DNA of 64,000 bases from an uncultured Methylomirabilota bacterium (lineage in GTDB: Bacteria; Methylomirabilota; Methylomirabilia; Methylomirabilales; 2-02-FULL-66-22), in the NCBI GenBank assembly GCA_963705305.1, contig OY970067.1:2368001-2432000 (forward strand). The letters run 5' to 3'. Below the pieces are notes generated by a model. The model searched no databases. It was not told the DNA's origin and saw nothing but the letters and a program-made list of their open reading frames with translations. A program made the translations under genes and the position numbers. Shown here one piece after another: positions 7,010-63,198 of this stretch. Each line of letters opens with the position of its first letter. Positions within the stretch are counted from its first letter, which is position 1.

Positions 7010-7921
7010 TCAGCGGGAGGGCGCGCCGTTCAGTGCGGGGGCCGCGCCCGTCACCTGCCAGACCGACTCCAGAAATGCCCGCAGCGCGGGCGAATCATCG
7101 TGCTCCCGCCACATGGCGGCCAGGTCCGTCGTCGGCGCCTTCAGCGGCCGGTACACGACGCCCGTGCGCTGGAGGTTGCGAAGCGATGCCGGCACCAGCG
7201 ACACACCCATGCCGCCGGCCACCAGGCTGATGATGGTCTGCATCGCCCGGGCCTCCTGGACGACCTTCGGGGTGAACCCCGCGCTGGCGCACAGCCGGAT
7301 GATCTCGTCGTAGAATCCCGGACCCAGCCGCCGCGGCACCAGCACGAACGGCTCCCCGGCCATGGCCCCCAGTGGAATCTCCCGCCGACGGGCCAGTCGG
7401 TGCGTCTCGGGTACGGCCGCCATCAGCGGCTCCCGCCAGATCACCCGCACCGAGAGCCCACCGGCATCCGCCACCGGCGGGCGCACCAGCCCCACGTCCA
7501 GCTGATCCCTGCGCATGGCCTCGACCTGCTCCTCGCTGGTCATGTCCTGGAGCGTCAGCGACAGGTCCGGGAACCGCCTGCGCACCTCCTGGAGGATCTC
7601 GGGGAAGATGCCGTACGCCACGGAGCTGACGAACCCAACCGCCAGCTGCCCGATCTCGCCGCGAGCCGCCCGCTGGGCGGCGCGCACCGCGTGCTGCGAC
7701 TGATCGAGCACCTTGCGGGCCTCCGCCAGGAACGCGGTTCCGGCTGCGGTCAGCCCGACGCGCCGGTTCGTGCGGTGCAGCAGGGCGGCGCCGATCTCGG
7801 CCTCCAGCGCCTTGATCTGTTGGCTCAGCGGGGGCTGGGCGATCCCCAGGCGCTGGGCGGCGCGGCCGAAATGCAGCTCCTCGGCCACGGCGACGAAGTA
7901 TTTCAAGTGTCGAAGCTCCAT
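7010..7921 (-). CDS. LysR family transcriptional regulator
   Basis: 'MELRHLKYFVAVAEELHFGRAAQRLGIAQPPLSQQIKALE'; divergent from an MFS gene. Confidence 0.95.
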   Translation of the reverse strand: MELRHLKYFVAVAEELHFGRAAQRLGIAQPPLSQQIKALEAEIGAALLHRTNRRVGLTAAGTAFLAEARKVLDQSQHAVRAAQRAARGEIGQLAVGFVSSVAYGIFPEILQEVRRRFPDLSLTLQDMTSEEQVEAMRRDQLDVGLVRPPVADAGGLSVRVIWREPLMAAVPETHRLARRREIPLGAMAGEPFVLVPRRLGPGFYDEIIRLCASAGFTPKVVQEARAMQTIISLVAGGMGVSLVPASLRNLQRTGVVYRPLKAPTTDLAAMWREHDDSPALRAFLESVWQVTGAAPALNGAPSR

Positions 7922-46130: not shown

Positions 46131-47732
46131 GGCGATCCATGAATAGGGGACCCGGCCGTTTCTGCGGTGTCAAGGCGGATCCCTCCTCTGGATGCCGACG
46201 CATCCGGCGTGGTGTCCTGCCTGCCTCCCCCGGGACCGCTCCCGGGTGATCTCTCCCGCCCCAGCGTAGTCGTGGCATCCGGCCTGCTCGCTGCCTGAGC
46301 GGCCCACCCGGCCGTGTCCGAGCTGCGGAGAGCGGGAGCGGCGCGCCAGGGTCCCCCGGCGGTCCCGGGGGGGCCGCCACGTTGCAGGAATCGCGCTGCC
46401 AGCTCCCCGGGGAAACCAGGATCTGCTACCCCTCAGCGGGCCGCCCGGCAGAGCCCGCCGGTCCGCCGCGGGTCGTAGGGGGTCCCGCGCCGCCACACGC
46501 CCCAGACGATCCGGAGGAGCTTCGCCGCCAGCTCCACGGTGGCCGTGAAGCCGGCGGCGCGGTCGCCCTGGCGCTTCGCCTGCAGCACCGCGAGCCGGGC
46601 CCGGCCGCTCGCCGTCCGCGTGACCCCCCGCGCCGCCTGGGACCAGGGCCCAGCGGAGGAGGCCGCGCCCGCCCTTCGAGATCCGCATCTGTCCCGCGTA
46701 CCGCCCGGACTGGACCTGGCAGATGTCGAGGCCGGCGAGCTTCCGGAGCTGGGAGAACTGCGTGAACCAGGCGATGTCGCCGATCTCGGCGAGGAGGGTC
46801 GCGGCCACCGTGGGCCCGACCCCCGGGATGGTCCGGAGGCCGGAAGCCGCTCGGCGACCGGCGTGCACGCCGCCTCGAGCGCGGCGATCCGGGCCTGCAC
46901 GGCCTCGACCTGGGCCCCGAGGTCGGCACAGGCGGTGGCGAGGCCGAGCGGGAGGCGGCCTTTCGCGACCGCCGGGCGGCCCGGGGCCACCCGCTCCCAG
47001 GCCTGGAGGACCATCGGGAGCTCGACCTGCAGGCGATTCGGGAGCGGGGCTCCCGCCGGGGCCAGACTGGGGCGGAGGGTGGTGCGCCAGCGCGCCTTGC
47101 AGGCGGCGAGCTCACTCCGGGCCCGGCGGAGGCACTTCACCAGGGGGCGCAACTCGGCGAGCGGGCCGGCGGGCCGCGAGTAGAAGAGCACCTTCCCCTG
47201 CTCCAGGAGATCGGCGCAGTTCGCGGCGTCCTTCCGGTCGGACTTGTCCCAGGTCCCGTCCTGGGTCCGGCGGTTCCAGTAGGCCACGCTGCTGGAGAGC
47301 AGCAGGACATCCGCCCCGTGCTGCTCCAGGAAGCTCGCCACCGCCTGGTGGTAGGTCCCGGTGGGCTCCAGGCCGCACCCGACCCCCCGGTCCCCGGTGC
47401 TCCGCTGCGCCGACTGGATCCGGGCCCAGAGCGTGGCGAAGCCCCGGGGGGTGTTCGGGATGGTGAGCGTCGGGACCACCACCCGCGTGTGCGCGTGCCG
47501 GAGGTGCCCCACGTGGGCGGCTTGGGCGACGTCGATCCCGACGAGGAGCCGCGATCGATCCGTCCACAGGGTAGCCTTGAGCGCCCGGAAGCGCTTGACA
47601 CGGGTGGCATTGTCACGGAGGGTAGCCATGGGGTTCTTCCTCCTCTGTGCGGGGCGAGTGGATGGCTCTCTGCACACCCCTACCAATAGCGAGGAAGGAC
47701 CCCTTTTTGAAGCTGCCTTTTTCATGAGAAAG
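46131..47732 (-). mobile_element. IS110-family element, IS1111 subgroup
   Basis: sub-terminal IRs ATGAAAAAGG / ATGAATAGGG; outward TTGACA near the right end; long downstream non-coding end; boundaries approximate. Confidence 0.75.
46433..47629 (-). pseudogene. IS110 DEDD recombinase, frameshifted
   Basis: 'VGIDVA', 'LEPTG', 'KSDRKDA', 'IPGVG', 'QSG...ISKGGR..LR' spread over two frames. Confidence 0.85.
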
Positions 47733-48177
47733 GGGTCACACTCAGGGAGTCTGGCCTGCGCTGGCTCATTCATGCAGGTAATACTACGTTGCGACTTTAT
47801 TGACATTATTAGATGCCGGGGCATAGAGAAGGGACGATGCCCCTTCGTGTTCCGCGCTCCCACAGACTCCGAGCGGGGATGCGGGCAGGGCCTGCAACAC
47901 GCCGAGGTCGGGGTGGGCGGCGAATTGAAGACGGCGAGGGCGATGAGGCGCGCGCCCTGGGCGCTGGGGCGGGGCTCGAGGCAGGGATGAGCCAGGGTCA
48001 ATTCATAGCTGCGCCGCGTCCCTGATGATACGTTCCGGAGGACTATGGAAGCCCGCGAGACGCCAGGAGTGTCAGGATGCAACGTCTCCTAGGCGACGAA
48101 TGAGGTGACGGCAACGAAGGAGGTAGCGGGAGGATCCACGGGCGGGACCCGGCCCGCCCGTGGGAGTGCGTAGCGCC

Positions 48178-51880: not shown

Positions 51881-51909
51881 CCGTTTCACCCTTGGTTCGA
51901 ACGGGCAAC

Positions 51910-53163
51910 ATGCATACTTCTGCGGTGGAGACCCATCACGCGCTCCTGCGGATGCTTCTGTTTGAACCGCAGAAGGCAAGGGGCTTTCTGTTCGAGCATA
52001 ACGCCGAGACGGCGCCGTCCGTGCCCGTTCCCGACTGGTCCCGTCTTGGCGAAATGGCGGAACAGGAGGGGGTTTCCGCAGTTCTGTTCCATAACATCAA
52101 GAAGCATAACCTGCAACATCTCGTCCCGCCGGAATGCTACAGGGACTTGTCCAACCAGTTCCATGTCAACCTGAAGCGCAACCTGCTGGTCATCGGCGCA
52201 TTGCGGCAGGTGCTGGCATCCTTTCAGGAGGCCGGCATTCACTGCATCATCCTGAAGGGCATCGCCCTTGCAGAGCGCGTGTACCCGAATATTGCCATGC
52301 GGGGGATGTCAAACGTCGATATCCTGGTCAGGAAAGCGGATCTCTTCAACGCCGACGAACGTCTGTGCTCCTTAGGATACACTTCGCAAGACAGTACCGC
52401 GACACAGGCGATCCTTAACCCCGCCGGGTATCTCGCCAGCCTGGAATACCGCAAACATGAACCGGCCCCCTTAAGCCTTCACGTTCACTGGCATCCAGTC
52501 AATACGTCGATCCCGGCGGCCATCTTCGCCGAGCGTATCGATATCGACCGGCTCTTGGAACGCGCCACGGCGAGCGTCGTGGCCGACAGCCAGGCCTGGA
52601 TTCTGAGCCCGGAGCATCTGATCATCTACCTTTGCGAACACGCCCTGAGGATCGGCCATTCCTTTGACCGCCTGATTCTCGTCTGCGATATCTTTTACGC
52701 CATAAAGGCCTTTGAAGATACCATCGACTGGGACTTTCTTGTCGAGGAGAGCCGTCGCTTCAACCTCTCCCGGTTCGTGTATCACGGGCTGACCATCGTG
52801 AAATATCATACCTCGTTGAATATCCCGGAAGCGTGCATGGCAAAACTGCGACCGCCCGATATCTCATGGGGGGAAAGGTATTTTCTCACACTCCAGTTCA
52901 ACAACCGGCGAATCAGGGGGAGCAGTTACTTCATCTACCTGACGATGCACAGGGGCTTTTTCGCCAAGATCGCATTCATCGCCCGGACCGTCTTTCCGCC
53001 GGTCCGGATCCTCCGGCAGCGACAGTACCGGAAAGACGTTGCATTCTCAAAATCACTGTATCTCCAGCGAGCCAGGGAGATCATTTCGCACATTTTCCTG
53101 TGGTCCTTTAGCAGGGCGAGCGCTGCTCACGGCAAGAGAAAGATGACGAAGGCCCTTCAGTGA
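51910..53163 (+). CDS. nucleotidyltransferase family protein (NTP_transf_5-like, RiPP-associated)
   Basis: 'ILKGIALA..VYP..AMRGMSNVDILV', 'HVHW', 'HLIIYLCEH', 'DIF'. Confidence 0.8.
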   Translation: MHTSAVETHHALLRMLLFEPQKARGFLFEHNAETAPSVPVPDWSRLGEMAEQEGVSAVLFHNIKKHNLQHLVPPECYRDLSNQFHVNLKRNLLVIGALRQVLASFQEAGIHCIILKGIALAERVYPNIAMRGMSNVDILVRKADLFNADERLCSLGYTSQDSTATQAILNPAGYLASLEYRKHEPAPLSLHVHWHPVNTSIPAAIFAERIDIDRLLERATASVVADSQAWILSPEHLIIYLCEHALRIGHSFDRLILVCDIFYAIKAFEDTIDWDFLVEESRRFNLSRFVYHGLTIVKYHTSLNIPEACMAKLRPPDISWGERYFLTLQFNNRRIRGSSYFIYLTMHRGFFAKIAFIARTVFPPVRILRQRQYRKDVAFSKSLYLQRAREIISHIFLWSFSRASAAHGKRKMTKALQ

Positions 53164-54794
53164 CAACCAAGAAAGAACCATCCGGGCTGAATCGAGGGGA
53201 CTGCGGGACTGCTCTGCAGACGGAAGAAGCCACCTTCTTCGAGGAGTGGCTGGCCGCAGGCCAGCCCCCGGAGCAGCTCTCGATCAGCGCCGTCTGCAAC
53301 GCCCGCTGCCTCTTCTGCTCGAACCGGATGAATCCTTTCCCGGTCACGCAAAATGTGTTTCGGGACATTGAAGACGTCAAGCTGCAGCTCTCGTTGAGCT
53401 CCGCCAACCATCAGGGCGATATTCACATGAGCGATTCCCTGCCGGGGCGGATTTCGGAAGGGGAGGCCTTTCTGCACCCCCGGTTTTTTGACATTCTCAC
53501 CCTCGTCCGGGAAAAATTCCTGGCCAATTGCCTGCACTTCACGACCAACGCTTCCCTGCTCGACGAGCGTTTCGTGCAAAAACTCGAACCCTTCCGTCCG
53601 GTCGAAATCAACATTTCCCTGCACTCCACGCAGCCGAAGCTGTGGACCCGGATTTTCCAATCTTCGGAGAGACGAGCCCGGACTGCCTTGAACTCTTTTG
53701 ATCTTCTGAAGAAGCATCACATCGACTTTACGGGAACCATCGTCCCTTTGCCCCGAATTTGCGGGTGGAACGACCTCGAAAACACCTTTGCTTTCCTGGT
53801 GGGCGCGGGGGCCAAATCCATCATTCTGTGGTGGCCTGGGTTCTCGGAAAAAACGCCTGCCGGGTTAAAAAGGGAAATCGAATGCCCCTGGGATGAATTC
53901 GGGGATTTCGTGAAGCACATGCAGGAAAAGTTTCCACGATTTCCGGTGATCCCGCAGCCGAACCCGCTGGAGCCCCGGAGGTTGCCGATCAAGCGGATCA
54001 TGAATTTTACGCTTCAGGGAAACCTGAAGACCTTCGGGGGGGCTTTTCGGCACGTGCTGTGGCTCGTTTCCGAGGCAGCCTATCCGGAAATGTCCAAACT
54101 GGTGGCGGAATTTGCGCAGGATGTCCCCAATGAACACCATGTCTTCCCGGTAAGAAACAGATCTTATGGCGGCAACATCCAGGTCAGCGGGCTGCTGATG
54201 GTCTCAGACTTTCTGGCTGCGGGAACGGAGGCACTGCAGAGGTGGCCAGCCGTCGATCTCGTGCTTGTTCCCAAAATGGCGTTTGACGCCTTCTTTCGCG
54301 ATCTGCAGAAGACGCCTGCCTACAAGATTCCGGAAGGGCTGGGAAGAACTACGTGGTTGGTCTTTGAGAAGGGCTCGTTCCTTTCTCTCAAGGGTCGCGG
54401 GTTCGTCACGCCGGAGAATGATCCCCAAAAGACCCTTGAGAAGTTGCTGAAGGTCATTGACGAATCGATACAGGCGGACAAGCTTGATGTCCTTTCGGCG
54501 ATGGTTGCCGCCTTTCCGATTCCGACCTCGGAAGGCATTCTGAAAGAAGGGGAATTCGGGGACTTTTTGAAGGGGATCAAGAAGGGCCAGTCTCCGACCG
54601 GAGCGTTCGAGAAGCGCGTATTTGAAAAGCTTGACGACCATCGCGTTGTTTGCATGGAAGAGCGGCCGACCGCAGATCCGTCCGAAGCGTCTGCTCGCTG
54701 GGTATTTTTCAGGAGAATAGGAAAGGACTGGAAGCTGGAAATGATTTTCTTTTCGCGCATTTCTGTTGACAGTGGATCAGATGGTTCGCTATGA
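53160..54794 (+). CDS. radical SAM protein with a DUF512-like domain
   Basis: 'CNARCLFC', 'INISLHST', 'NRSYGGNIQVSGLL..DF'; GTGA overlap with the upstream gene. Confidence 0.8.
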   Translation: MTTKKEPSGLNRGDCGTALQTEEATFFEEWLAAGQPPEQLSISAVCNARCLFCSNRMNPFPVTQNVFRDIEDVKLQLSLSSANHQGDIHMSDSLPGRISEGEAFLHPRFFDILTLVREKFLANCLHFTTNASLLDERFVQKLEPFRPVEINISLHSTQPKLWTRIFQSSERRARTALNSFDLLKKHHIDFTGTIVPLPRICGWNDLENTFAFLVGAGAKSIILWWPGFSEKTPAGLKREIECPWDEFGDFVKHMQEKFPRFPVIPQPNPLEPRRLPIKRIMNFTLQGNLKTFGGAFRHVLWLVSEAAYPEMSKLVAEFAQDVPNEHHVFPVRNRSYGGNIQVSGLLMVSDFLAAGTEALQRWPAVDLVLVPKMAFDAFFRDLQKTPAYKIPEGLGRTTWLVFEKGSFLSLKGRGFVTPENDPQKTLEKLLKVIDESIQADKLDVLSAMVAAFPIPTSEGILKEGEFGDFLKGIKKGQSPTGAFEKRVFEKLDDHRVVCMEERPTADPSEASARWVFFRRIGKDWKLEMIFFSRISVDSGSDGSL

Positions 54795-54854
54795 AGGGTG
54801 TATCTTTATTGAACCTATTGAAAAGGATGCCGTAAGCGCAATAGGGGGAGGAAC

Positions 54855-55049
54855 ATGAAAGACGACAGGAAAGAGTGGGTCCCGCCCCAATTGATCGTCC
54901 TGGGCAGGGGAACGCCGGAGGAGAATGTCCTGGGCGGCTGCAAGACCTCAACGCTGACGGGTTCCGGCGCCACGAAGACCAGCTGCAAGAAAAAAACGGG
55001 TTCTACTTGCGCCTCAACCCGGTGCAGCACCATTTCCAAAACGTCTTAG
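54855..55049 (+). CDS. putative RiPP precursor peptide (64 aa)
   Basis: GGGGAGGA RBS; leader WxxPxL..PEENVLGG; 36-aa Cys/Thr/Ser/Lys-rich core. Confidence 0.85.
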   Translation: MKDDRKEWVPPQLIVLGRGTPEENVLGGCKTSTLTGSGATKTSCKKKTGSTCASTRCSTISKTS

Positions 55050-55059
55050 GTTTTCGTTC

Positions 55060-57033
55060 TTGGATAGACAAGCGAACCTCAGTAAAAGCGCGAGACGCAT
55101 CCCACGGCTGCCCCTCGAAGGCAACATCGATCTGACCTACCGGTGTAACTGCAACTGCCGCCACTGCTGGCTGTGGCTGCCGGCAAACGACAAAGTCGAG
55201 AAACGGGAGCTTTCATTCGACGACATCGATAGAATTGTGGGTGAAGCCCGGGCGATGGGCTGCCGCAGGTGGCTGATTTCCGGCGGCGAACCCATGCTGC
55301 GTCCCGACTTCGTCGATATTTTCGATATGATCACGCGCCGCTCGCTTTCCTATTCGCTGAATACGAACGGCACGCTGATCACGCCGACCATCGCCCGCCT
55401 GCTGCGAAGAAAAGGCGCGAAGATGGTCGCTCTCTACGGGGCGACCGCGGAAATCCACGATCACATTACGCGGACCCCCGGATCCTTTGCGGCGGTCCTG
55501 CGGGGTTTTGCCTACCTCCGGGAGGCCAGGGCGGGTTTCATCGTCCAGCTCATCCCCATGCGCGACAATTATCATGAGTTCGACGCCATGATGCGGCTCG
55601 CCCGCTCCCTGAGCCCCGTGTACCGCGTGGGCGCACCGTGGCTGTACCTTTCCGCCTGCCGCAGCGCCGTCCGCAACCGCGAAATTTCACGGCAGAGGTT
55701 GGACCCGGCGGATACGATCCGCGTCGAACCGCCCGATGCCGTCGATGACGATGGGCCGATGACCCAGATCGAGGGGGACGGCAAGCCGCCGTCCCGCCTT
55801 CAGCCCGGCGCAGACGGCCGGCTTTTCGAGGCCTGCATCGAAGGATGCCGGGATTTCCACATCGATCCCTACGGCGGTATGACCTTCTGCCCCTTCATCA
55901 AAGACCCTGCGCTGCGCTACAATCTGCGGAAGGGAAGTTTTCGGGAGGCATGGGATGCGTTCATCCCTTCGCTTGCCGAGAAGGTACACGCCGATCCGGA
56001 GTATGAGGAAAACTGCGGCCGCTGCGAAAAACGCGTGGATTGCCGCTGGTGCCCCGCCTATGCCTACCTGGAAGAAGGCCGATACTCGGCGAAGGTCCCG
56101 TACCTGTGCGCTCTTGCGGATGGAACGCGATCTTACAAGGAAAACTGGCTGCGGCATCACCGCCGGTATTTCCGAATTGCCGGCGTAACGATCCGGGTGG
56201 ATTCCGATCTTCCGTTCACGGAAAAGACCTTTGACCCGAAGTTCAAGAAGTTCGAAGCGGAGGGCCCGTCGGAAGATACGATTTCCTTGCGCCATCATTT
56301 TTCGGTCCCGAAATTTGACCGGGACGACACGGGCCAGGAGATGTACCGCCGGGCGCCCTGGGCGATCTACCGCAAGGGCCGATCCTGGATCTATCTGGGC
56401 ATCGGGCCCGGGCGGCGCGATCGATCTATCCACTGCGCGGCCGCATTTAATGAGGGGCATACGCGGGGGCGGATCTACAACCACGGCGAAGCCCGTTTTC
56501 GCCATGGGAACCTGCACGCCCTGACGCTGTTCCCCTCCGATCAGATCCTGCTGGCGCGGGCGCTTGCCGACCGCCAGGCCTGCTTTGTCCACGCCGCGGG
56601 GGTGGACATCGGCGGGAAGGGGCTCCTGCTGGTGGGGCATTCCGGAGCCGGGAAAACCACGGCGGCGAGAATGCTGCGGACGCATGGGGAAGTGCTCTGC
56701 GACGACCGGATCGTCGTGCGCCGCTGGCCGGAGGGGCTCCGCATCCACGGGACCTGGAGCCACGGCGAGCTGCCGGACGTGTCCGCCGGCTCCGCCCCGC
56801 TTTCCGCCATCCTGTTCCTCGAAAAGGCGGATGGAAACCGCCTCGTGCCGGTGACGAGGACCATCGAGATCGCGCGGCTTCTTGCCCAGCATGTGGTGAG
56901 GCCTCTGGTGACGGCCGACTGGTGGGAAAAGATCCTGGCCCTGGTAGACACCGTGGCGCGGGAGGCTCCGGCATACCGACTCGAGTTCGACAAGAGCGGC
57001 CGGATGATTGAGGATGTCGCGAAAATACTGTGA
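55060..57033 (+). CDS. radical SAM/SPASM enzyme fused to an HPr-kinase-like P-loop domain
   Basis: 'CNCNCRHC', 'GGEP', SPASM 'CGRC....DCRWCP'; C-terminal 'HAAGV..GHSGAGKTT..LCDD'; start uncertain. Confidence 0.85.
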   Translation: MDRQANLSKSARRIPRLPLEGNIDLTYRCNCNCRHCWLWLPANDKVEKRELSFDDIDRIVGEARAMGCRRWLISGGEPMLRPDFVDIFDMITRRSLSYSLNTNGTLITPTIARLLRRKGAKMVALYGATAEIHDHITRTPGSFAAVLRGFAYLREARAGFIVQLIPMRDNYHEFDAMMRLARSLSPVYRVGAPWLYLSACRSAVRNREISRQRLDPADTIRVEPPDAVDDDGPMTQIEGDGKPPSRLQPGADGRLFEACIEGCRDFHIDPYGGMTFCPFIKDPALRYNLRKGSFREAWDAFIPSLAEKVHADPEYEENCGRCEKRVDCRWCPAYAYLEEGRYSAKVPYLCALADGTRSYKENWLRHHRRYFRIAGVTIRVDSDLPFTEKTFDPKFKKFEAEGPSEDTISLRHHFSVPKFDRDDTGQEMYRRAPWAIYRKGRSWIYLGIGPGRRDRSIHCAAAFNEGHTRGRIYNHGEARFRHGNLHALTLFPSDQILLARALADRQACFVHAAGVDIGGKGLLLVGHSGAGKTTAARMLRTHGEVLCDDRIVVRRWPEGLRIHGTWSHGELPDVSAGSAPLSAILFLEKADGNRLVPVTRTIEIARLLAQHVVRPLVTADWWEKILALVDTVAREAPAYRLEFDKSGRMIEDVAKIL

Positions 57034-57060
57034 AACGTCCCCGCCGATCGGGATCACGGC

Positions 57061-58245
57061 ATGACGGAACGCACGTATGTTGATAAGAGGAATATCGGTC
57101 ATGCCCCCCACTGGGGAGGAGAGGGGCCTCCCGCGGTTCATCTCGACATCGAGCTAACGGAGCGCTGCAACAACACCTGCATCCACTGCTGCATCAACAA
57201 ACCGGCTGGGGACAAGCGGAGCCTGGCCCGCGAGCTTGAGACCTCCGCCTGGAAGGACATCCTCCGCCAGGCCGCCGAGCTGGGGGTGATGACGGTCCGT
57301 TTCACCGGCGGCGAGCCGCTGCTCCGGCAGGATTTTTCCGACCTGTACCTGTTTGCGCGCCGCCTCGGGCTGAAGGTGATGCTGTTCACCAACGCCCGGC
57401 TCATCGGGCCGCACATCGCCGCACTGCTGGCCGATGTTCCCCCCCTCGAAGATATCGAGATTTCCGTATACGGCATGAGCAGGGAGTCCTATGAAGCCGT
57501 CACGGGCGTTGACGGTTCTTACGCCGAGTTCCGCAATGGCGTGCAGTGTCTGCTCGACAGAAAGATCCCTTTCGCTGTAAAAGGAGCGCTGCTGCCGCCC
57601 AATAAACATGAAATGGCGGAATTCGCTGCCTGGGCGGCCGCCAACACTCGGATGGATATCCCTCCCACGTACGCCATGTTCTTTGACCTGCGGGGGCGGC
57701 GGGATTCCGCCGCCAAAGACAGCAGGATCAGGCGCCTGCGCGTCTCTCCCGAAGAGGGCCTGCAGATCCTCACCCGGCATCCGGACCGGTACCTGAAGGA
57801 GATGTCCGAATTCTTTGAAAGGTATTCATCGCCTCCCGGTGACCGGCTGTTCACCTGTGGAATCGGACCGGGTTGCGTGGATGCCTACGGTGTTTTCCAG
57901 CCCTGCCTGTCGCTCCGACACCCCGATTTGACTTCTGATTTAAAAAGAGGCGCCCTGAAAGAAGCCCTGGCGTCCGGAGTCACCCGCCTTCGAGAAATGA
58001 AGGCCACGAATCCGCTTTATCTCAAACGATGCGCACGCTGTTTCCTGAGGGGCTTCTGTGAGCAATGCCCGGCCAAGTCATGGTCTGAACACGGCACGCT
58101 GGACAGGCCGGTCGAATACTGCTGCCGGGTGGCCCATGCGCAGGCCCGGTTTCTGGGGCTCGTCATGGAGAAAGAACGGGCATGGGAGGTCCGCGACAGC
58201 GCAGAAAGAATACAGAACCTCAGAAGGAGAGTGGCGGCGACATGA
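57061..58245 (+). CDS. radical SAM/SPASM enzyme
   Basis: 'CNNTCIHC', 'GGEP', 'CARC....FCEQCP...YCC'. Confidence 0.9.
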   Translation: MTERTYVDKRNIGHAPHWGGEGPPAVHLDIELTERCNNTCIHCCINKPAGDKRSLARELETSAWKDILRQAAELGVMTVRFTGGEPLLRQDFSDLYLFARRLGLKVMLFTNARLIGPHIAALLADVPPLEDIEISVYGMSRESYEAVTGVDGSYAEFRNGVQCLLDRKIPFAVKGALLPPNKHEMAEFAAWAAANTRMDIPPTYAMFFDLRGRRDSAAKDSRIRRLRVSPEEGLQILTRHPDRYLKEMSEFFERYSSPPGDRLFTCGIGPGCVDAYGVFQPCLSLRHPDLTSDLKRGALKEALASGVTRLREMKATNPLYLKRCARCFLRGFCEQCPAKSWSEHGTLDRPVEYCCRVAHAQARFLGLVMEKERAWEVRDSAERIQNLRRRVAAT

Positions 58246-58550
58246 AGAAGATACGGATGGACATGGTTTTTTCCCACTCCAGCGATGTGGTGTCGAGGGA
58301 AATTGACGGCGCTTTGATTATCGTCCCCCTCACATCCGGCGTGGGCGATATGGAAGACGACCTGTTTTCCATGAATGAATCCGGTACGGAAATCTGGAGC
58401 ATGCTGGACGGCAAAAAGACCTTGCAAGAGATCGTCGAGGCCCTGGCTCGGCAATACCATGCCGAGCCGGGAGAGATCGAACGGGACGTCGCTGGAATCG
58501 TCGAGGAATTGCTCAAAAGGAGAATGCTTGTCGAAGCGACCGCCGCGTGA
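58242..58550 (+). CDS. PqqD-family RiPP recognition element
   Basis: 'SREIDG..IIVP', 'MNESGTEIWSMLDG..TLQEIVEAL..QY', 'DV..IVEEL'. Confidence 0.9.
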   Translation: MKKIRMDMVFSHSSDVVSREIDGALIIVPLTSGVGDMEDDLFSMNESGTEIWSMLDGKKTLQEIVEALARQYHAEPGEIERDVAGIVEELLKRRMLVEATAA

Positions 58551-59058
58551 ATACCTGCATCCCGCGATGCGGAAAGTCGGCCTGCCCCTTTCCGGAGAGG
58601 CCCTGATTGCGCTCATGCAGACTGTGCATGGGAAAGGATTCCCCTTCCGATTCAGCGCCGGCGGATACAGCATGACGCCCTTCATCAGGGATGGCGACGT
58701 GATCACCGTCTCTTCCCTGGCTTCGCATGCGCCGCGTCGGGGGGACGTCGTGGCGTTCGTCCACCCGGAAACACAACGGCTTTGCCTGCACCGGGTGCTG
58801 TCCGTCCATGGAGACAGCTTCTTCATCCAGGGCGACAATATGCCTGAAAGACCGGACGGTGTGATTCCGCGAGAGGCGATTCTCGGGCGGGTCACGGGTA
58901 TCGAGCGCGCCGGCAGGAGAGTCAGACTGGGGCTCGGCCCCGAACGCCTGCTGGTCGCCATTCTGAGCCGATGCGGAGGCATGGCCCTGACCCGGCGGTA
59001 TGCCGGCTGGCTCCATGCCTATTTCAGCAGGAGCCACGGATCGTGCGAAAAGCGTTAG
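58528..59058 (+). CDS. S24/S26-family peptidase (probable leader peptidase)
   Basis: 'GYSMTPFIRDGD', 'GDVVAF', 'LHRV', 'QGDN'; start approximate. Confidence 0.8.
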   Translation: MSKRPPREYLHPAMRKVGLPLSGEALIALMQTVHGKGFPFRFSAGGYSMTPFIRDGDVITVSSLASHAPRRGDVVAFVHPETQRLCLHRVLSVHGDSFFIQGDNMPERPDGVIPREAILGRVTGIERAGRRVRLGLGPERLLVAILSRCGGMALTRRYAGWLHAYFSRSHGSCEKR

Positions 59059-60188
59059 TATCCTATACGAGCCTGCCCGATTTTGCGCTCTGGGATGCAC
59101 TCGGGGACAGGCGGATTCCGCTGTCCTTCGATCTCGAGGTGACCGCCCGCTGCAACAACAATTGCCGTCATTGCTACATCAACCTCCCGCCGGACGATAG
59201 CGCGGCTCTGCGTGATGAACTGACGCTGGAGGAAATCAGCCGCATTGCGGACCAGGCTGTCTCCCTCGGGTCCCTCTGGTGCCTGATAACGGGCGGCGAA
59301 CCTCTTCTCCGAGCAGATTTTCCTGATCTGTACCGGCTGCTGAAGAGCAAGGGCCTGTTGGTTTCCCTTTTTACCAATGCCTGCCTGGTCACGGAGAAGC
59401 ACATACAACTGTTCAGGAGCTATCCCCCGCGGGATATCGAGGTCACCGTGTATGGCGCCACGGGCGAGACGTATGAACGGGTGACCCGTAGTTCCGGCTC
59501 CTATGCGGCGTTCCGCCGCGGCCTGACCCTGCTGCTCGAGGGGGGGGTCAAGGTGAATCTGAAGACCATGGTGCTGCGTTCCAATAAGCATGAACTGCCG
59601 GCTATCGCCCGTTTCTGCCGAGAAAGAACGAAAGGCCCTTTTCGCTTCGATCCCATGCTGCACCTGCGGTTTGACGGAAACGAGCGAAGAAACGATGAAA
59701 TACGCGCAGAGAGGCTGACGGCCGAGGAGATCATCGGGATTGAACAGGCGGATCCGGAGCGGTTGGCGGCCATGGAAAAGAGATGCGGCATGCTGGAGAC
59801 AGCCGCCGCCGAGGCAGGACCGGATTATCGTCTTTTTCAGTGCCAGGCGGGAGGAGAGAGTTTCGCCGTGAGCTGCAACGGTCTCTTCCGTCTCTGCTCG
59901 TCTCTGTGGCAGCCTGACTGTCTCTACGATCTGTGCCAGGGCACGCTGGCCGAAGCCTGGTTCGATTTCACCCCGCGGATACGCGCAATCACCTCGGACA
60001 ACACTGAATATCTCGAGACCTGCCGCCTGTGTCCCCTCATGAATCTGTGCCAATGGTGCCCCGCCCATGCCCATCTGGAGTGCGGCCGCATGGATGAACG
60101 GTGTGGATACTTCTGCCGCGTGACACAGGCACGGGCGGAAGCGTTCGGGAAGCGGGAAAAGGCGGCATCCACATCCGAAGAAAGATGA
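59043..60188 (+). CDS. radical SAM/SPASM enzyme
   Basis: 'CNNNCRHC', 'GGEP', 'CRLC....LCQWCP...YFC'. Confidence 0.9.
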   Translation: MRKALVSYTSLPDFALWDALGDRRIPLSFDLEVTARCNNNCRHCYINLPPDDSAALRDELTLEEISRIADQAVSLGSLWCLITGGEPLLRADFPDLYRLLKSKGLLVSLFTNACLVTEKHIQLFRSYPPRDIEVTVYGATGETYERVTRSSGSYAAFRRGLTLLLEGGVKVNLKTMVLRSNKHELPAIARFCRERTKGPFRFDPMLHLRFDGNERRNDEIRAERLTAEEIIGIEQADPERLAAMEKRCGMLETAAAEAGPDYRLFQCQAGGESFAVSCNGLFRLCSSLWQPDCLYDLCQGTLAEAWFDFTPRIRAITSDNTEYLETCRLCPLMNLCQWCPAHAHLECGRMDERCGYFCRVTQARAEAFGKREKAASTSEER

Positions 60189-60208
60189 AGGGCTTATCCT
60201 GCTCCCAG

Positions 60209-60385
60209 TGAAGTCGACGCCACCCTGACGCTCTGGGGGGATCCCTGGCGCGGAGGTGGCTACGGTCGACAACAGTCCCGAGCCCGTGGAACGCTGGATT
60301 GCCAAGGGCCGAGCGGCGCTCGTGCTCGCCATCCCGAAGGGGGAGACGACAATCGCGGAGGCCGCCCGCCGGCACGGCCTCAGGG
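60209..60385 (+). mobile_element. IS3-family OrfA (DUF1153-like) remnant
   Basis: '[30 protein letters not shown]', truncated; preceded by a TG-starting end. Confidence 0.65.
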
Positions 60386-63013
60386 CCGGTCGAGGCGGCC
60401 GACCTGGACAGGCACGCGCGGAAGATCGCCGTCATGGGGGAGGGGCAGGAAATCGGGGCCCCACACCGCCAGCTCCAGCTCGTACCGCCCGGGGGCGGGA
60501 GGCGCGGGGATCACCCAGGCCACGGGAACGGCTTGGCCGGGAAACACGTCGTCCGGGAGGGGGACAAGGTCGGTCGAGACGGGGCGCCCCGCCAGGAGCC
60601 AGCGCGTCCGCAGGATGAAGCATCCGAAGTAGGACCGGGGCGTGGCCAGCCACAGGGCGCTCCGGCCCGCTCCCCAGATCGGCCACTCCGCCCCCAGCTC
60701 GGGCAGGTCCGCCGAGGCATACCAGAGGGCGAGATCGTGAAGCGTGGCGAGCCGTCGGAACGGCATCGCGTCGGCGGTGCCGCGGGCGGTGGGCCGCCAC
60801 GGGACGGCTCCGACATTTCGGACCAGCGCCGACGCCTGGATCGGCTGGCTGACGCCGACCGCCAGCTCCGGGGGCCCGAGCCAGGTCAGCGCCGCGCGGG
60901 GCTCTCCGCTCGAGGACGCTTCCGGGGAGACGAGGACGGGCCGGACCAGGCGGAAGACGTCTCCCCCTATCTCCAGACGGTAACTCCCCGGGGACCGGGG
61001 GGTTTCCAGGGGGAGGGCGGTCAGGTACTGACCCCCCGCCGGCAGGAGCGTCGGGAGGTAGGTCGCGACACGCTCCTCGACCCGGGGGCCGCCGTCCGCT
61101 GGAATCCAGGTCACCCGGACCGGTCGGATCCCGAGGGGGCCGGGGTTGACCCACGGGGCTCCGGATCGTTCCAGGAGGAGGAGCCGGAGCCGGAGCGGGC
61201 GCCCGGCGGGAAGGCCCGCAGGCAGCGATGCCTCCGCATCCAGGCCGGCTGCCCGCCGCGAGGCGGGCGGGATGCGATACAGCTGGATGTCCGGCAAGGC
61301 AAGGATCCGCTCCAAACCCGGGATCGGCGGCGCGCCCTGGCGCCAGGCGGCGCGCGCCGCCTCGGGCAGCGCATCCAGGTGCACCGCCAGTGTCCGAACG
61401 CCCAGGGCGCCCAGCGCCTCCACGACGCGGGGGGACAGCCCTTCGCCGTTCACCAGGGCGGCGATCTCGTAGTAGGAGCCGGGCCGGAATCCGGAATAGC
61501 CGTTGACCAAGGGCGCCCAGTCGCGCGTACTCTGCAGCGCGTAGGTGGCCTCGGTCAGCGGGTCGTAGATGGAAAAGGGGATCTCCAGGACGGCGCCCTC
61601 CGCGGCTCGCTCGCGCAGGATTCGGGTGACCGCAGCGTCGCCGAGGGACACGGGCCGGAGGGGGACGGGGACATGGAGGGCCTCCAGCGTCATGGCCGCC
61701 AGGGCGAGGCCTCCCAGGATGGCGCCGGGCTGCGGCAGCGCCGGCCGTCGCTCCCGCAGGAAGTCGGCGAGGCGGGCGAGACCGGCGGCCGCGAAGAGGG
61801 CCAGGGGGACGAGGGCGAGGAGCGCGAAGCGGGCGGGGACGCGAATGCCGCCGAGCCCCGGCAGGCCAAGGAACAGACCGAGATAGGGGAGCGGCCACTG
61901 GGCCGGGGCGTCGCCCCAGATCAGGATGGGGCCGAGCGCCAGGACCAGGGCCGTCGCGCCCACCAGGGCCAGCGCAGGCGCTGCGGCGGGCCAGGCCGCC
62001 CCCCCGCGCGTGGCGACCCGCCGCCGGGACGCCAGCCCCCAGGCGGCCAGGCCCCAGGGCAGGAGGCCGAAGAAGAGGGCGCTCTCCCAGGGAGCATCCC
62101 GGCGCCGGAACTTGGCCGTGGCGGCCCCGTAGAGCCAGTTGGCCTGGTCGGCGGCAAGAAAGCTGGCCGGCTCGGCGCTGTAGCGCACGAGGTCGCCGAG
62201 GCCACGCTGATAGCCCCACTGGGCTTGCGAGTGGGCATAGGGGAGCGCCACGGGGAGAAAGAGGAGGGCCCCGACGAGCAGGGCGACGGCGAGGTGCGAC
62301 AGGGCCTGCAGGCGAGGCCATCGCCCCCGCTCCTGCCAGGTGCGCACCGCCAGGTAGGGGACGAGGAGAAGCCCTGCCATGATGCCCAGGTAGGCAGAGC
62401 TGAGGAACTGGCACCAGAGCAGACCGCTGGCGGCCACAGCTAGGGTCCACCGCGGCCGCCGGAGCCACGCCTCCACGGCCAGGAAGACCAGGGGAGTCCA
62501 CCAGGCGGACGACAGCTGCAGGTGAACCAGGTGCGGGAAGCGGGGGAGCGCGAACGCGTACACGAACCCCGCCACCAGGGCGGGCCCCCGGCGTCCGAGG
62601 AGGGCCCAGGCCAGCCAGGCCATGCAGAGTCCATTGAGGACGAAGGCGCCCAGCAGGGTCAGATTGCAGGCGAGGATGGGATTCCCCGTCAGAAAGTAGA
62701 GCGGGGCGAAGAGCGGCTGGTCGCCCAGCAGGCTGTCCGAGAAGGCCAGCGCATCGCGGGCCGGGTAGAATATGTTGGCCTGAAAGAGCCGCAGGGGGGC
62801 ATGAGCTAGTGCATGGGCCCCCCAGCTCAGGATGTAGGCGGTGAGAGGGGGGTCGGAGGCGCTGGCGAGGTTTTCGTGGGTGATGAGGTGATCAGTGAGA
62901 TGCGCCGCCAGCGGCCAGGTCAGGCCCACGGCGGTGATCGCGTAGAGGGCGAGAGCGCCAAGGAACAGGCGGGCTGTCGGGCGGCCTGCGGGCGAAGGCC
63001 CGGGCTGAGACAT
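60380..63013 (-). CDS. multi-TM membrane protein, GT-C/YfhO-like glycosyltransferase
   Basis: 'LTWPLA', 'DP....YILSW', 'ANIFYP', 'IRVPARF', 'LVNGYSG'; C-terminal extracytoplasmic domains. Confidence 0.7.
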   Translation of the reverse strand: MSQPGPSPAGRPTARLFLGALALYAITAVGLTWPLAAHLTDHLITHENLASASDPPLTAYILSWGAHALAHAPLRLFQANIFYPARDALAFSDSLLGDQPLFAPLYFLTGNPILACNLTLLGAFVLNGLCMAWLAWALLGRRGPALVAGFVYAFALPRFPHLVHLQLSSAWWTPLVFLAVEAWLRRPRWTLAVAASGLLWCQFLSSAYLGIMAGLLLVPYLAVRTWQERGRWPRLQALSHLAVALLVGALLFLPVALPYAHSQAQWGYQRGLGDLVRYSAEPASFLAADQANWLYGAATAKFRRRDAPWESALFFGLLPWGLAAWGLASRRRVATRGGAAWPAAAPALALVGATALVLALGPILIWGDAPAQWPLPYLGLFLGLPGLGGIRVPARFALLALVPLALFAAAGLARLADFLRERRPALPQPGAILGGLALAAMTLEALHVPVPLRPVSLGDAAVTRILRERAAEGAVLEIPFSIYDPLTEATYALQSTRDWAPLVNGYSGFRPGSYYEIAALVNGEGLSPRVVEALGALGVRTLAVHLDALPEAARAAWRQGAPPIPGLERILALPDIQLYRIPPASRRAAGLDAEASLPAGLPAGRPLRLRLLLLERSGAPWVNPGPLGIRPVRVTWIPADGGPRVEERVATYLPTLLPAGGQYLTALPLETPRSPGSYRLEIGGDVFRLVRPVLVSPEASSSGEPRAALTWLGPPELAVGVSQPIQASALVRNVGAVPWRPTARGTADAMPFRRLATLHDLALWYASADLPELGAEWPIWGAGRSALWLATPRSYFGCFILRTRWLLAGRPVSTDLVPLPDDVFPGQAVPVAWVIPAPPAPGRYELELAVWGPDFLPLPHDGDLPRVPVQVGRLDRP

Positions 63014-63198
63014 GCTCAGGCGTTCCCGCACGGCATCAGCCCGGACATGTCACGTACACCGCGGAGGCGCCAAAGGCGCGGAGACAACGACAGCCTCCTC
63101 GAGCTTGCGGAGGGGGGCCTTGCATCCTCGTGTTCCGTGCTCCCCCATCCGGGGACGGGCAAACGCACGGGATCGCGCCGGCGCGATTCCCACAGCTT

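Follow-up and report, generated by a model that had tools for sequence, protein, structure and literature searches.

What would be made by a gene block that groups four radical S-adenosylmethionine (SAM) enzymes, a kinase-like domain, a nucleotidyltransferase, a peptidase and a peptide-recognition protein around one short peptide gene? The question is raised by positions 51910–60188 of the 64,000-nucleotide stretch analysed here (contig OY970067.1, positions 2,368,001–2,432,000; hereafter the window), which comes from an uncultured Methylomirabilota bacterium. The answer we favour, at a probability of roughly 80%, is that the block is a cluster for a peptide that is made by the ribosome and modified after translation (RiPP), joining a tailoring toolkit of the linear polyphosphorylated peptide (LPP) and paeninodin type with four radical-SAM enzymes, and that its product would be a cross-linked, methylated and phosphorylated peptide. 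An earlier, sequence-only reading of this DNA had listed the genes and proposed a RiPP system; a check of the open reading frames (ORFs) confirmed all eight, co-directional on the plus strand and in the order listed (Table 1), and the RiPP proposal was supported by the finding of a conserved precursor that keeps company with the enzymes.

From gene content, folds, motifs, conservation, synteny and mobility we infer the chemical steps, the cleavage site and the biological role discussed below. The discrete PqqD-family RiPP recognition element (RRE) would bind the WxxPxL leader of the precursor. Three SPASM-type radical-SAM enzymes without an RRE of their own would most likely link the four core cysteines to carbons of other residues as thioethers, and a class-2 cobalamin enzyme resembling Mmp10 would most likely C-methylate the peptide. 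An HprK-fold kinase is predicted to phosphorylate a serine, a PF14907 transferase to decorate the phosphate, and a soluble SpI-like Ser/His peptidase, aided by the RRE, to cut off the leader.

The precursor gene is preceded by a strong ribosome-binding site, GGGGGAGG, 5 nt 5' of its ATG. The peptide belongs to no Pfam family; its leader contains W8xxP11xL13xxxG17 followed by RGTPEENVL – reading WxxPQLIVLGRGTPEENVL..CK as a whole – and its core is cationic and rich in Ser and Thr, with cysteines at positions 29, 44, 52 and 57 and a C-terminal Ser64. When 5.8 billion proteins were searched, 134 homologues of 35–112 aa came to light, most of them 59–83% identical over nearly the full length. An alignment of 41 sequences has invariant columns at W8, P11, L13, I14, L16, R18, G19, P21, E22, E23, N24, V25 and L26 and again at C29, K30, C44 and C57. 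Among the 120 of these 134 homologues that were listed, 115 have exactly four cysteines from Cys29 onward (with a usual spacing of 15, 8–10 and 5), the last residue is Ser in 116 and the last two are Thr-Ser in 104, and the cores contain 17% Lys, 16% Ser, 15% Thr, 11% Cys, 0.2% Asp and no Glu.

A second subgroup, described below with its loci, has leaders that read KKxWxKPELVVLVRxxPEExxLxxCK. Its 17 leader-bearing ORFs have hypervariable, often acidic or aromatic cores, with the Cys-Lys pair kept in 17/17 and the final Ser in 15/17. The sequence-only reading had spoken of a 36-aa core, whose boundary after a Gly-Gly pair did not become established: the residue before the invariant Cys-Lys varies in the wider family, namely in the second subgroup, which argues against a simple small-residue cleavage rule before Cys29. 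If the spacing of LPP peptides, which are cut 16 residues from the aromatic one, applies here, the site could be after Glu23, within the invariant RGTPEENVL; Gly28 and Lys30 are the other residues behind which a cut may be placed.

The RRE, a clear PqqD match, has 68–85% identity in 7 orthologues, and its profile retrieves the lasso-peptide RRE TbiB1 (E 1.2e-6), PqqD structures and two PqqD-family entries from 2026. A predicted complex of the RRE with the precursor scored an ipSAE of 0.44, against 0.00 for the best control, with runs agreeing in at least 92% of contacts and a partner pLDDT of at least 48. The mark applied to this score is passed by 116/157 solved complexes and 2/215 mismatches, a pass at 0.60 or below being found for only 18 of those 157 complexes and for both mismatches; the prediction, which may owe its pass to memory of solved lasso RRE–leader complexes, lends weak support to leader binding.

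The peptidase lies just above the Pfam cut-offs for Peptidase_S26 (25.3 bits) and S24 (24.2 bits). Its best NCBIfam match is sigpep_I_arch, the archaeal-type signal peptidase I (42 bits against a cut-off of 51.85), and its profile reached SEC11A in the PDB at E 0.15 only. The motifs SM.P, HRV and QGD are invariant in 8/8 sequences, and the residue that follows is N in 7/8; orthologue ORFs span 176–227 aa, and no membrane segment was seen in the 163-aa form of the window's protein.

Within the protein that fuses a SPASM enzyme to the kinase-like domain, residues 360–657 have ScmC as their best NCBIfam match (E 2.8e-11; 43.3 bits against a cut-off of 125), followed by HprK_rel_B and HPr kinase, and a genome-wide search with ScmC found the fusion (40.8 bits) as the sole match. 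The P-loop GHSGAGKT at aa 526 and the CDDR motif at aa 547 are both intact. An AlphaFold2 model of the domain (pLDDT 95.7) was matched by Foldseek to phosphoenolpyruvate carboxykinase (PEPCK; E 1e-6) and to the HPr kinase/phosphorylase structures 1kkl and 1jb1 (both E 2e-5). Neither the fusion nor the DUF512 enzyme nor the transferase, which is a firm Pfam NTP_transf_5 match, had a close structure in a PDB sequence search.

These parts recall two characterised kinds of system, described here from the accessible portions of the cited sources. The LPP clusters of Bacillota encode LppA/K/B/S/D/N (Popov et al., Nat Commun 2026, PMC13381572). LppK puts several phosphates on core Ser3, LppS (catalytic S29, H68 and D93) needs LppB for its cut after Thr-1, and LppN was inactive in a heterologous host (PMC13381572); the supplement of the same paper lists lppN and pbaN as PF14907. 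In pseudomycoidin, the C-terminal Ser receives a phosphate from PsmK, and this phosphate a hexose from PsmN (Zyubko et al. 2019, PMC6993621). The sequence-only reading had named a kinase-like fusion, a nucleotidyltransferase, an RRE and an S26 peptidase, and all of them are present; what it had missed is that they form a toolkit with the characterised counterparts LppK/LppN/LppB/LppS and PsmK/PsmN (PMC13381572, PMC6993621).

In LPP clusters and the present one alike, a discrete PqqD-type RRE adjoins an archaeal-type SpI-like peptidase (with a 16-nt gap here), and the SM.P, HRV and QGD motifs correspond to the Ser/His/Asp triad of LppS. Both have an HprK-like kinase – here as a fused domain – and a PF14907 transferase, both leaders carry the motif [Y/W]xxPx[L/V], and polysaccharide genes adjoin both: LPP clusters often lie within capsular polysaccharide loci (in the accessible text of PMC13381572), and four Desulfobacterota loci of the present family lie beside Wza/Wzz-type genes. 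The two also differ. The LPP core set includes an MsbA-like exporter, which is missing here from the eight genes and the flanks examined, while relatives do encode one of MsbA-like or ABC type (L005 and L006); the LPP leader consensus YxxPxVLxHQxIxFETxxS is not matched by WxxPQLIVLGRGTPEENVL; and LPP maturation has no radical-SAM step, its linear core being phosphorylated on Ser3. The main text of that paper has 0 occurrences of 'radical', and in its supplement, which was searched for five terms, Radical_SAM stands only as a single column header out of 834 (PMC13381572). Unlike LPP clusters, the present one has four radical-SAM enzymes, four cysteines and a C-terminal Ser in its peptide, a kinase–radical-SAM fusion, and hosts outside Bacillota.

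Paeninodin (PadeK) and pseudomycoidin (PsmK/PsmN) share with the present cluster the HprK-family kinase, a PF14907-type transferase, a WxxPxL leader and a PqqD RRE. In those lasso peptides the kinase acts on a C-terminal Ser, to whose phosphate the PF14907-type transferase adds. By analogy with them, the likeliest phosphorylation site here would be the near-universal C-terminal Ser; an alternative, modelled on LPP Ser3, would be a Ser or Thr just past the Cys-Lys junction. Unlike lasso peptide clusters, however, the eight proteins include no Asn-synthetase-like cyclase and no transglutaminase-like B2 cysteine protease by Pfam, maturation involves radical-SAM enzymes, and the leader is predicted to be removed by a serine peptidase. 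The sequence-only reading had likewise noted that the block is without a lasso cyclase, a lanthipeptide dehydratase, a YcaO protein and an exporter, and Pfam agrees for the eight genes; relatives have an ABC exporter directly downstream.

All four radical-SAM enzymes keep CX3CX2C. The three SPASM enzymes score 67–73 bits with Pfam Radical_SAM, each has 7–8 C-terminal cysteines including a Cx2Cx5Cx2C arrangement, and their best NCBIfam alignments are with radical SAM/SPASM models. In the fusion protein CX3CX2C occupies aa 29–36, further cysteines lie at 259, 263, 277, 319, 322, 328, 331 and 350, and residues 24–329 align with the MftC model. For the second enzyme the best models are StsB, at 84 bits, and ScmE, at 83.6 bits, neither of which comes near its cut-off, and the third aligns with ScmE over residues 50–376 (66 bits against 400); indeed, the NCBIfam matches of every protein in the module are sub-threshold only. 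No N-terminal RRE domain was found in the three SPASM enzymes, whose CX3CX2C begins at residue 29–37, and they presumably share the discrete RRE.

Like the sactipeptide and ranthipeptide maturases StsB, AlbA, SkfB and the SCIFF-type enzymes, these are SPASM radical-SAM enzymes that accompany a Cys-rich precursor, and the StsB, AlbA and SkfB models do match them. They differ in scoring 44–84 bits against cut-offs of 300–850, in having no fused N-terminal RRE and in being three paralogues, not one. The prerequisites for such chemistry are here genetic only, namely SPASM-type Cys patterns and four core cysteines. A single sacti- or ranthipeptide maturase installs all the links of its peptide, yet three enzymes stand here, which is why some of them may carry out other chemistry, such as epimerisation or the formation of C–C links.

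The fourth radical-SAM enzyme is of another kind. Both its Radical_SAM (40 bits) and DUF512 (32 bits; cut-off 25) matches exceed the Pfam cut-offs, its CX3CX2C lies at aa 46–53, and its AlphaFold2 model (pLDDT 78.6) has Mmp10 structures 7qbt and 7qbs as best folds (E 2e-11 over ~415 columns), followed by the DUF512 structures 9cg1 and 9cg2. With these proteins (7QBS, 9CG1, 9CG2), its top structural matches, it shares a radical-SAM domain that carries CX3CX2C and precedes a DUF512 fold at the C-terminus; it differs from them in sharing only 15–19% identity, in carrying an extra C-terminal domain of ~120 aa and in standing in a RiPP cluster beside a candidate peptide substrate. Since it folds like Mmp10, which methylates a carbon of peptide-bound Arg, the DUF512 enzyme is probably a cobalamin-dependent C-methylase. 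The sequence-only reading had counted it among up to four enzymes that act on the core, for example by thioether crosslinks or epimerisation, and on this point it has to be amended: the likeness to Mmp10 points to methylation and not to cross-linking. According to the accessible parts of two sources, DUF512 was shown by Wang et al. 2024 to be a domain that binds cobalamin (PMC11659888), and DUF512 proteins form methylcobalamin and cleave S-adenosylmethionine, their reactions beyond Mmp10 being stated as unknown (2025 review, PMC13331322).

The eight-gene arrangement is not due to chance, because the same genes recur in the same order in independent contigs and because the homology to a congeneric genome, G013, ends at 51896 and 60194. 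A scan for the leader pattern in one genome per species (185,579 species) found 9 loci, of which 8 are in metagenome-assembled genomes (MAGs) labelled Desulfonema, Desulfobacteraceae, Thermodesulfobacteriota or 'delta proteobacterium'; the ninth (L009), in an Actinomycetes-labelled MAG, is a fragmented and frameshifted copy. Precursor, fusion, second SPASM enzyme (rSAM-B), PqqD, peptidase and third SPASM enzyme (rSAM-C) were found by tblastn in 7/7 loci of sufficient length (L001–L007), at 51–85% identity. All eight genes stand in the window's order in L004, L005, L006 and the G013 locus L016; the transferase is at the opposite end in L002, L008 stops after the second radical-SAM gene, and no DUF512 gene was found upstream in L003 (10 kb) or L008 (1.7 kb). 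The sequence-only reading had held that precursor homologues lacking the enzymes would speak against it, and the two were found together in L001–L007 and G013.

Beyond these close relatives, an exhaustive, profile-free search with the fusion protein gave ~20 full-length fused representatives (39–53% identity) and many stand-alone proteins of ~300 aa that match residues 365–655. A metagenome scan delineated the second subgroup (L019–L023 and L038), whose fusion is 54–60% identical and is accompanied by the two remaining SPASM enzymes, PqqD and the peptidase, though not by a DUF512 gene; each locus has more than one precursor. On one of its metagenome contigs (L022:11018–18653), ~11 precursor genes (11 tblastn matches) stand in tandem and interspersed among the enzyme genes, with a common leader and hypervariable Cys-containing cores. 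Finally, a small cassette of one SPASM enzyme, a separate ScmC-like protein and PqqD, sometimes with peptidase and transferase, is found in distant loci (L027, L031, L035, L040 and others) and in several congeneric genomes. Among its carriers are L013 (genome G022, of the same order), L015 (G004) and L017 (G011, with the transferase), G004 and G011 being congeneric; a leader-pattern search for a look-alike precursor in the cassettes L013, L015 and L017 returned nothing convincing.

An ABC exporter lies directly downstream in L005 and L006. In four loci (L001:2795–8230, L004:1–1943, L005:17246–19801 and L006:17392–19967) the cluster adjoins, in either orientation, genes for an HD_5 protein and a Wza-like Poly_export/SLBB protein, upstream in two and, past the ABC exporter, downstream in the other two; L001 also has a Wzz/GNVR/AAA_31 protein. 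This association with polysaccharide genes across four MAGs, which may be related to one another, is a lead only. It would fit a bolder picture – in our estimate quite unlikely as a whole – in which the product, instead of being a free antimicrobial, is a cationic peptide stapled by the radical-SAM enzymes whose C-terminal phospho-Ser is glycosylated by the PF14907 enzyme and which is covalently joined to, or primes, an exported polysaccharide; no class-2 cobalamin radical-SAM enzyme before this DUF512 protein would then have had a RiPP as its substrate. A peptide–polysaccharide joining of this kind would explain why the toolkit recurs inside polysaccharide export loci, both the Wza/Wzz-type ones here and the capsule loci of LPP clusters.

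The cluster is also a discrete, low-GC, horizontally mobile module of 8.3 kb. Among 20 other genomes of the genus, only G013 has an orthologous fusion gene (2/21 genomes of the genus), and its locus L016 has all eight genes at 73–89% protein identity. Nucleotide alignment with G013 covers 51896–60194 only, at 85–86.5% identity, and the flanks cannot be aligned and encode unrelated housekeeping genes; in the same way, peat metagenome contigs from runs X2 and X12 match 51899–60189 and then diverge. GC content is 0.591 in the module against 0.661 in the genome, only 162 of 5638 equal-size windows being as low or lower, and GC at third codon positions (GC3) is 0.68–0.77 against 0.82–0.88 in neighbouring genes. 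The flanking CstA has named homologues in NC10/Methylomirabilota (~81% identity), whereas the relatives of the cluster are labelled Desulfobacterota, so that a transfer across phyla is likely, as judged from this one marker. In the order of one Desulfobacterota-labelled MAG, 10/201 sampled genomes have a match to the precursor.

Table 1. The eight-gene module and its parts (positions in the window; gene starts as refined).
Feature	Positions	Strand	Basis
Transferable module	51896..60194		blastn edges against the congeneric genome G013 (L016)
PF14907 (NTP_transf_5) nucleotidyltransferase, LppN/PsmN-type	51910..53163	+	Pfam, 170 bits
Radical SAM + DUF512 enzyme, Mmp10-like, probable peptide C-methyltransferase	53160..54794	+	Pfam and AlphaFold2 fold
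64-aa precursor peptide	54855..55049	+	Ribosome-binding site, homologues, invariant columns
Radical SAM/SPASM half of the fusion protein	55060..56136	+	Radical_SAM, 72.9 bits
ScmC-like/HprK-PEPCK-fold kinase half of the fusion protein	56137..57033	+	NCBIfam, P-loop, AlphaFold2/Foldseek
Second radical SAM/SPASM enzyme	57061..58245	+	Radical_SAM, 66.8 bits
Discrete PqqD-family RRE, 102 aa	58242..58550	+	PqqD, 62.5 bits
Soluble SpI-like S26 leader peptidase of the archaeal/ER Ser/His type	58567..59058	+	Pfam S26/S24 above cut-off
Third radical SAM/SPASM enzyme	59043..60188	+	Radical_SAM, 72.5 bits

Three of the gene starts were refined from orthologue ORFs: PqqD starts at 58242, the peptidase probably at 58567 and the third SPASM enzyme probably at a GTG at 59043. 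The longest ORF of the peptidase begins at 58375 and would overlap the PqqD gene, and that of the third SPASM enzyme begins at 58971, its counterparts in 4 orthologues starting 16 nt before the peptidase stop. With the refined starts the successive intergenic gaps are -4, 60, 10, 27, -4, 16 and -16 nt. Scans for promoters and terminators stayed at chance level (1 promoter against 2.3 expected, 12 terminators against 8.9), no direct or inverted repeats flank the module – the repeats detected reflect paralogy among the three SPASM genes – and the 64-kb window has no tRNA.

Several observations weigh against the proposal of a phospho-tailored, cross-linked and methylated peptide. The kinase domain scores 24.5–26 bits with Pfam Hpr_kinase_C, below the cut-off of 33.3, and the Pfam SPASM model stayed sub-threshold, at E 0.016 on one tested segment. 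The use of three separate SPASM enzymes for four cysteines is unusual, and since the LPP kinase targets core Ser3 and not a C-terminal Ser, the phosphorylation site here may be of either kind. No exporter was found among the eight genes or in the examined flanks. CobS and CobD/CbiB were not found in the single-contig host genome G000 (98.9% complete), which does encode 8 B12-binding proteins over cut-off; without CobS and CobD/CbiB the cobalamin enzyme would need an imported corrinoid, and the host is probably a corrinoid auxotroph, as judged from its gene content. Lastly, codon 134 of the transferase (52312–52314) reads AAC, placing Asn at the first Asp of the DxD metal motif. This position is Asp in 9/9 other aligned homologues, and G at 52312 (GAC, Asp) was read in 4/4 metagenome runs compared, one of which, X1, has a 259-nt piece that differs from the window only at 52312; Asn134 may thus stem from an inactivating mutation private to this genome or from an error in the assembly.

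The last three points could be read together as decay: the cluster would be a passenger that no longer makes its full product, with an inactive transferase, no exporter and a host unable to synthesise B12, to which one may add the foreign composition and an IS110 transposase ~4 kb upstream. We consider this unlikely, given that all eight frames are open with their catalytic motifs intact, that codon 134 specifies Asp in run X1, a near-identical population in which 15/16 pieces have at least 99% identity, and that the host uses B12. A different doubt concerns the nature of the product. The combination of PqqD, a SPASM radical-SAM enzyme, a peptidase and a sugar or nucleotide transferase parallels the logic of mycofactocin, and the peptide might be a scaffold from which, as with pyrroloquinoline quinone (PQQ) or mycofactocin, a small redox cofactor or metabolite is derived, with only a few residues, such as the C-terminal Thr-Ser, modified and excised. 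The MftC and PqqE models are indeed among the matches, and in the first subgroup the whole precursor is unusually conserved, including the Thr-Ser end of 104/120 homologues listed. This seems distinctly improbable nonetheless in view of the second subgroup, whose hypervariable cores, with up to 11 precursors per locus, fit diversified peptides; of the four cysteines, whose spread across the core suggests that all of it is structured; of the ABC exporters directly downstream in L005 and L006; and of the patchy, mobile distribution (2/21 genomes of the genus, 10/201 in one order).

Highly improbable, in our judgement, is that the cluster is a plain member of the SynChlorMet (Scm) cassettes with extra genes, a resemblance to which the sequence-only reading had already drawn attention. 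As far as resemblance goes, it was right. Like those cassettes, the cluster combines at least two SPASM enzymes that resemble PqqE with a homologue of PqqD and an ScmC-like P-loop protein; ScmC is the best NCBIfam match of the kinase-like domain (E 2.8e-11), ScmE and ScmF are among the top matches of all three SPASM enzymes, and ScmD matches the RRE. However, scans with the Scm-family models, which the same reading had suggested, failed every curated cut-off and so speak against membership (ScmC 43 against 125 bits, ScmE 66–84 and ScmF 72–90 against 400, ScmD 29.9 against 100). The ScmC-like part is moreover fused here, and the four radical-SAM genes – one of them a cobalamin enzyme extra to SynChlorMet, as are the peptidase and the transferase – set the cluster apart. 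Membership would in any case not explain function: a literature search that excluded most subscription journals found no paper on SynChlorMet, nor one on a radical SAM/HprK/RiPP architecture like this.

If the phospho-tailored, radical-SAM-modified RiPP that we favour is the right reading, then the phospho-tailoring toolkit of LPP and paeninodin, which has been reported from Bacillota only, would extend to other phyla through relatives recruited to radical-SAM chemistry. The fusion of a radical-SAM enzyme with a kinase suggests a coupling of cross-linking and phosphorylation not described before. The neighbouring 64-aa peptide is moreover an obvious candidate substrate for the DUF512 cobalamin radical-SAM enzyme, a member of a class of ~6000 sequences whose reactions are still called an open question in the accessible part of a December 2025 review (PMC13331322). 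With its small size of 8.3 kb, its mobility and its good sampling (134 precursors), the family is practical for heterologous expression.

Around the module, an upstream nitroreductase and a downstream membrane protein were considered as further members and rejected, as both have native GC3 (0.86–0.88) and are not common to G013. The latter, an 883-aa multi-pass protein of high native GC without a Pfam match at E 0.001, is encoded directly downstream and convergently (60380–63031, minus strand). The IS110-family (DEDD) transposase ORF upstream (46433–48082, minus strand) lies in a stretch of ~75% GC and is absent from the G013 locus. Compared with its relatives, the window is also without two insertions of 85–185 nt, one near the end of the transferase gene and one between the precursor and the fusion, which are found at L016:4372–4578 and 7577–7735 and, in runs X2, X8 and X12, at the points corresponding to window positions 53094 and 55050.

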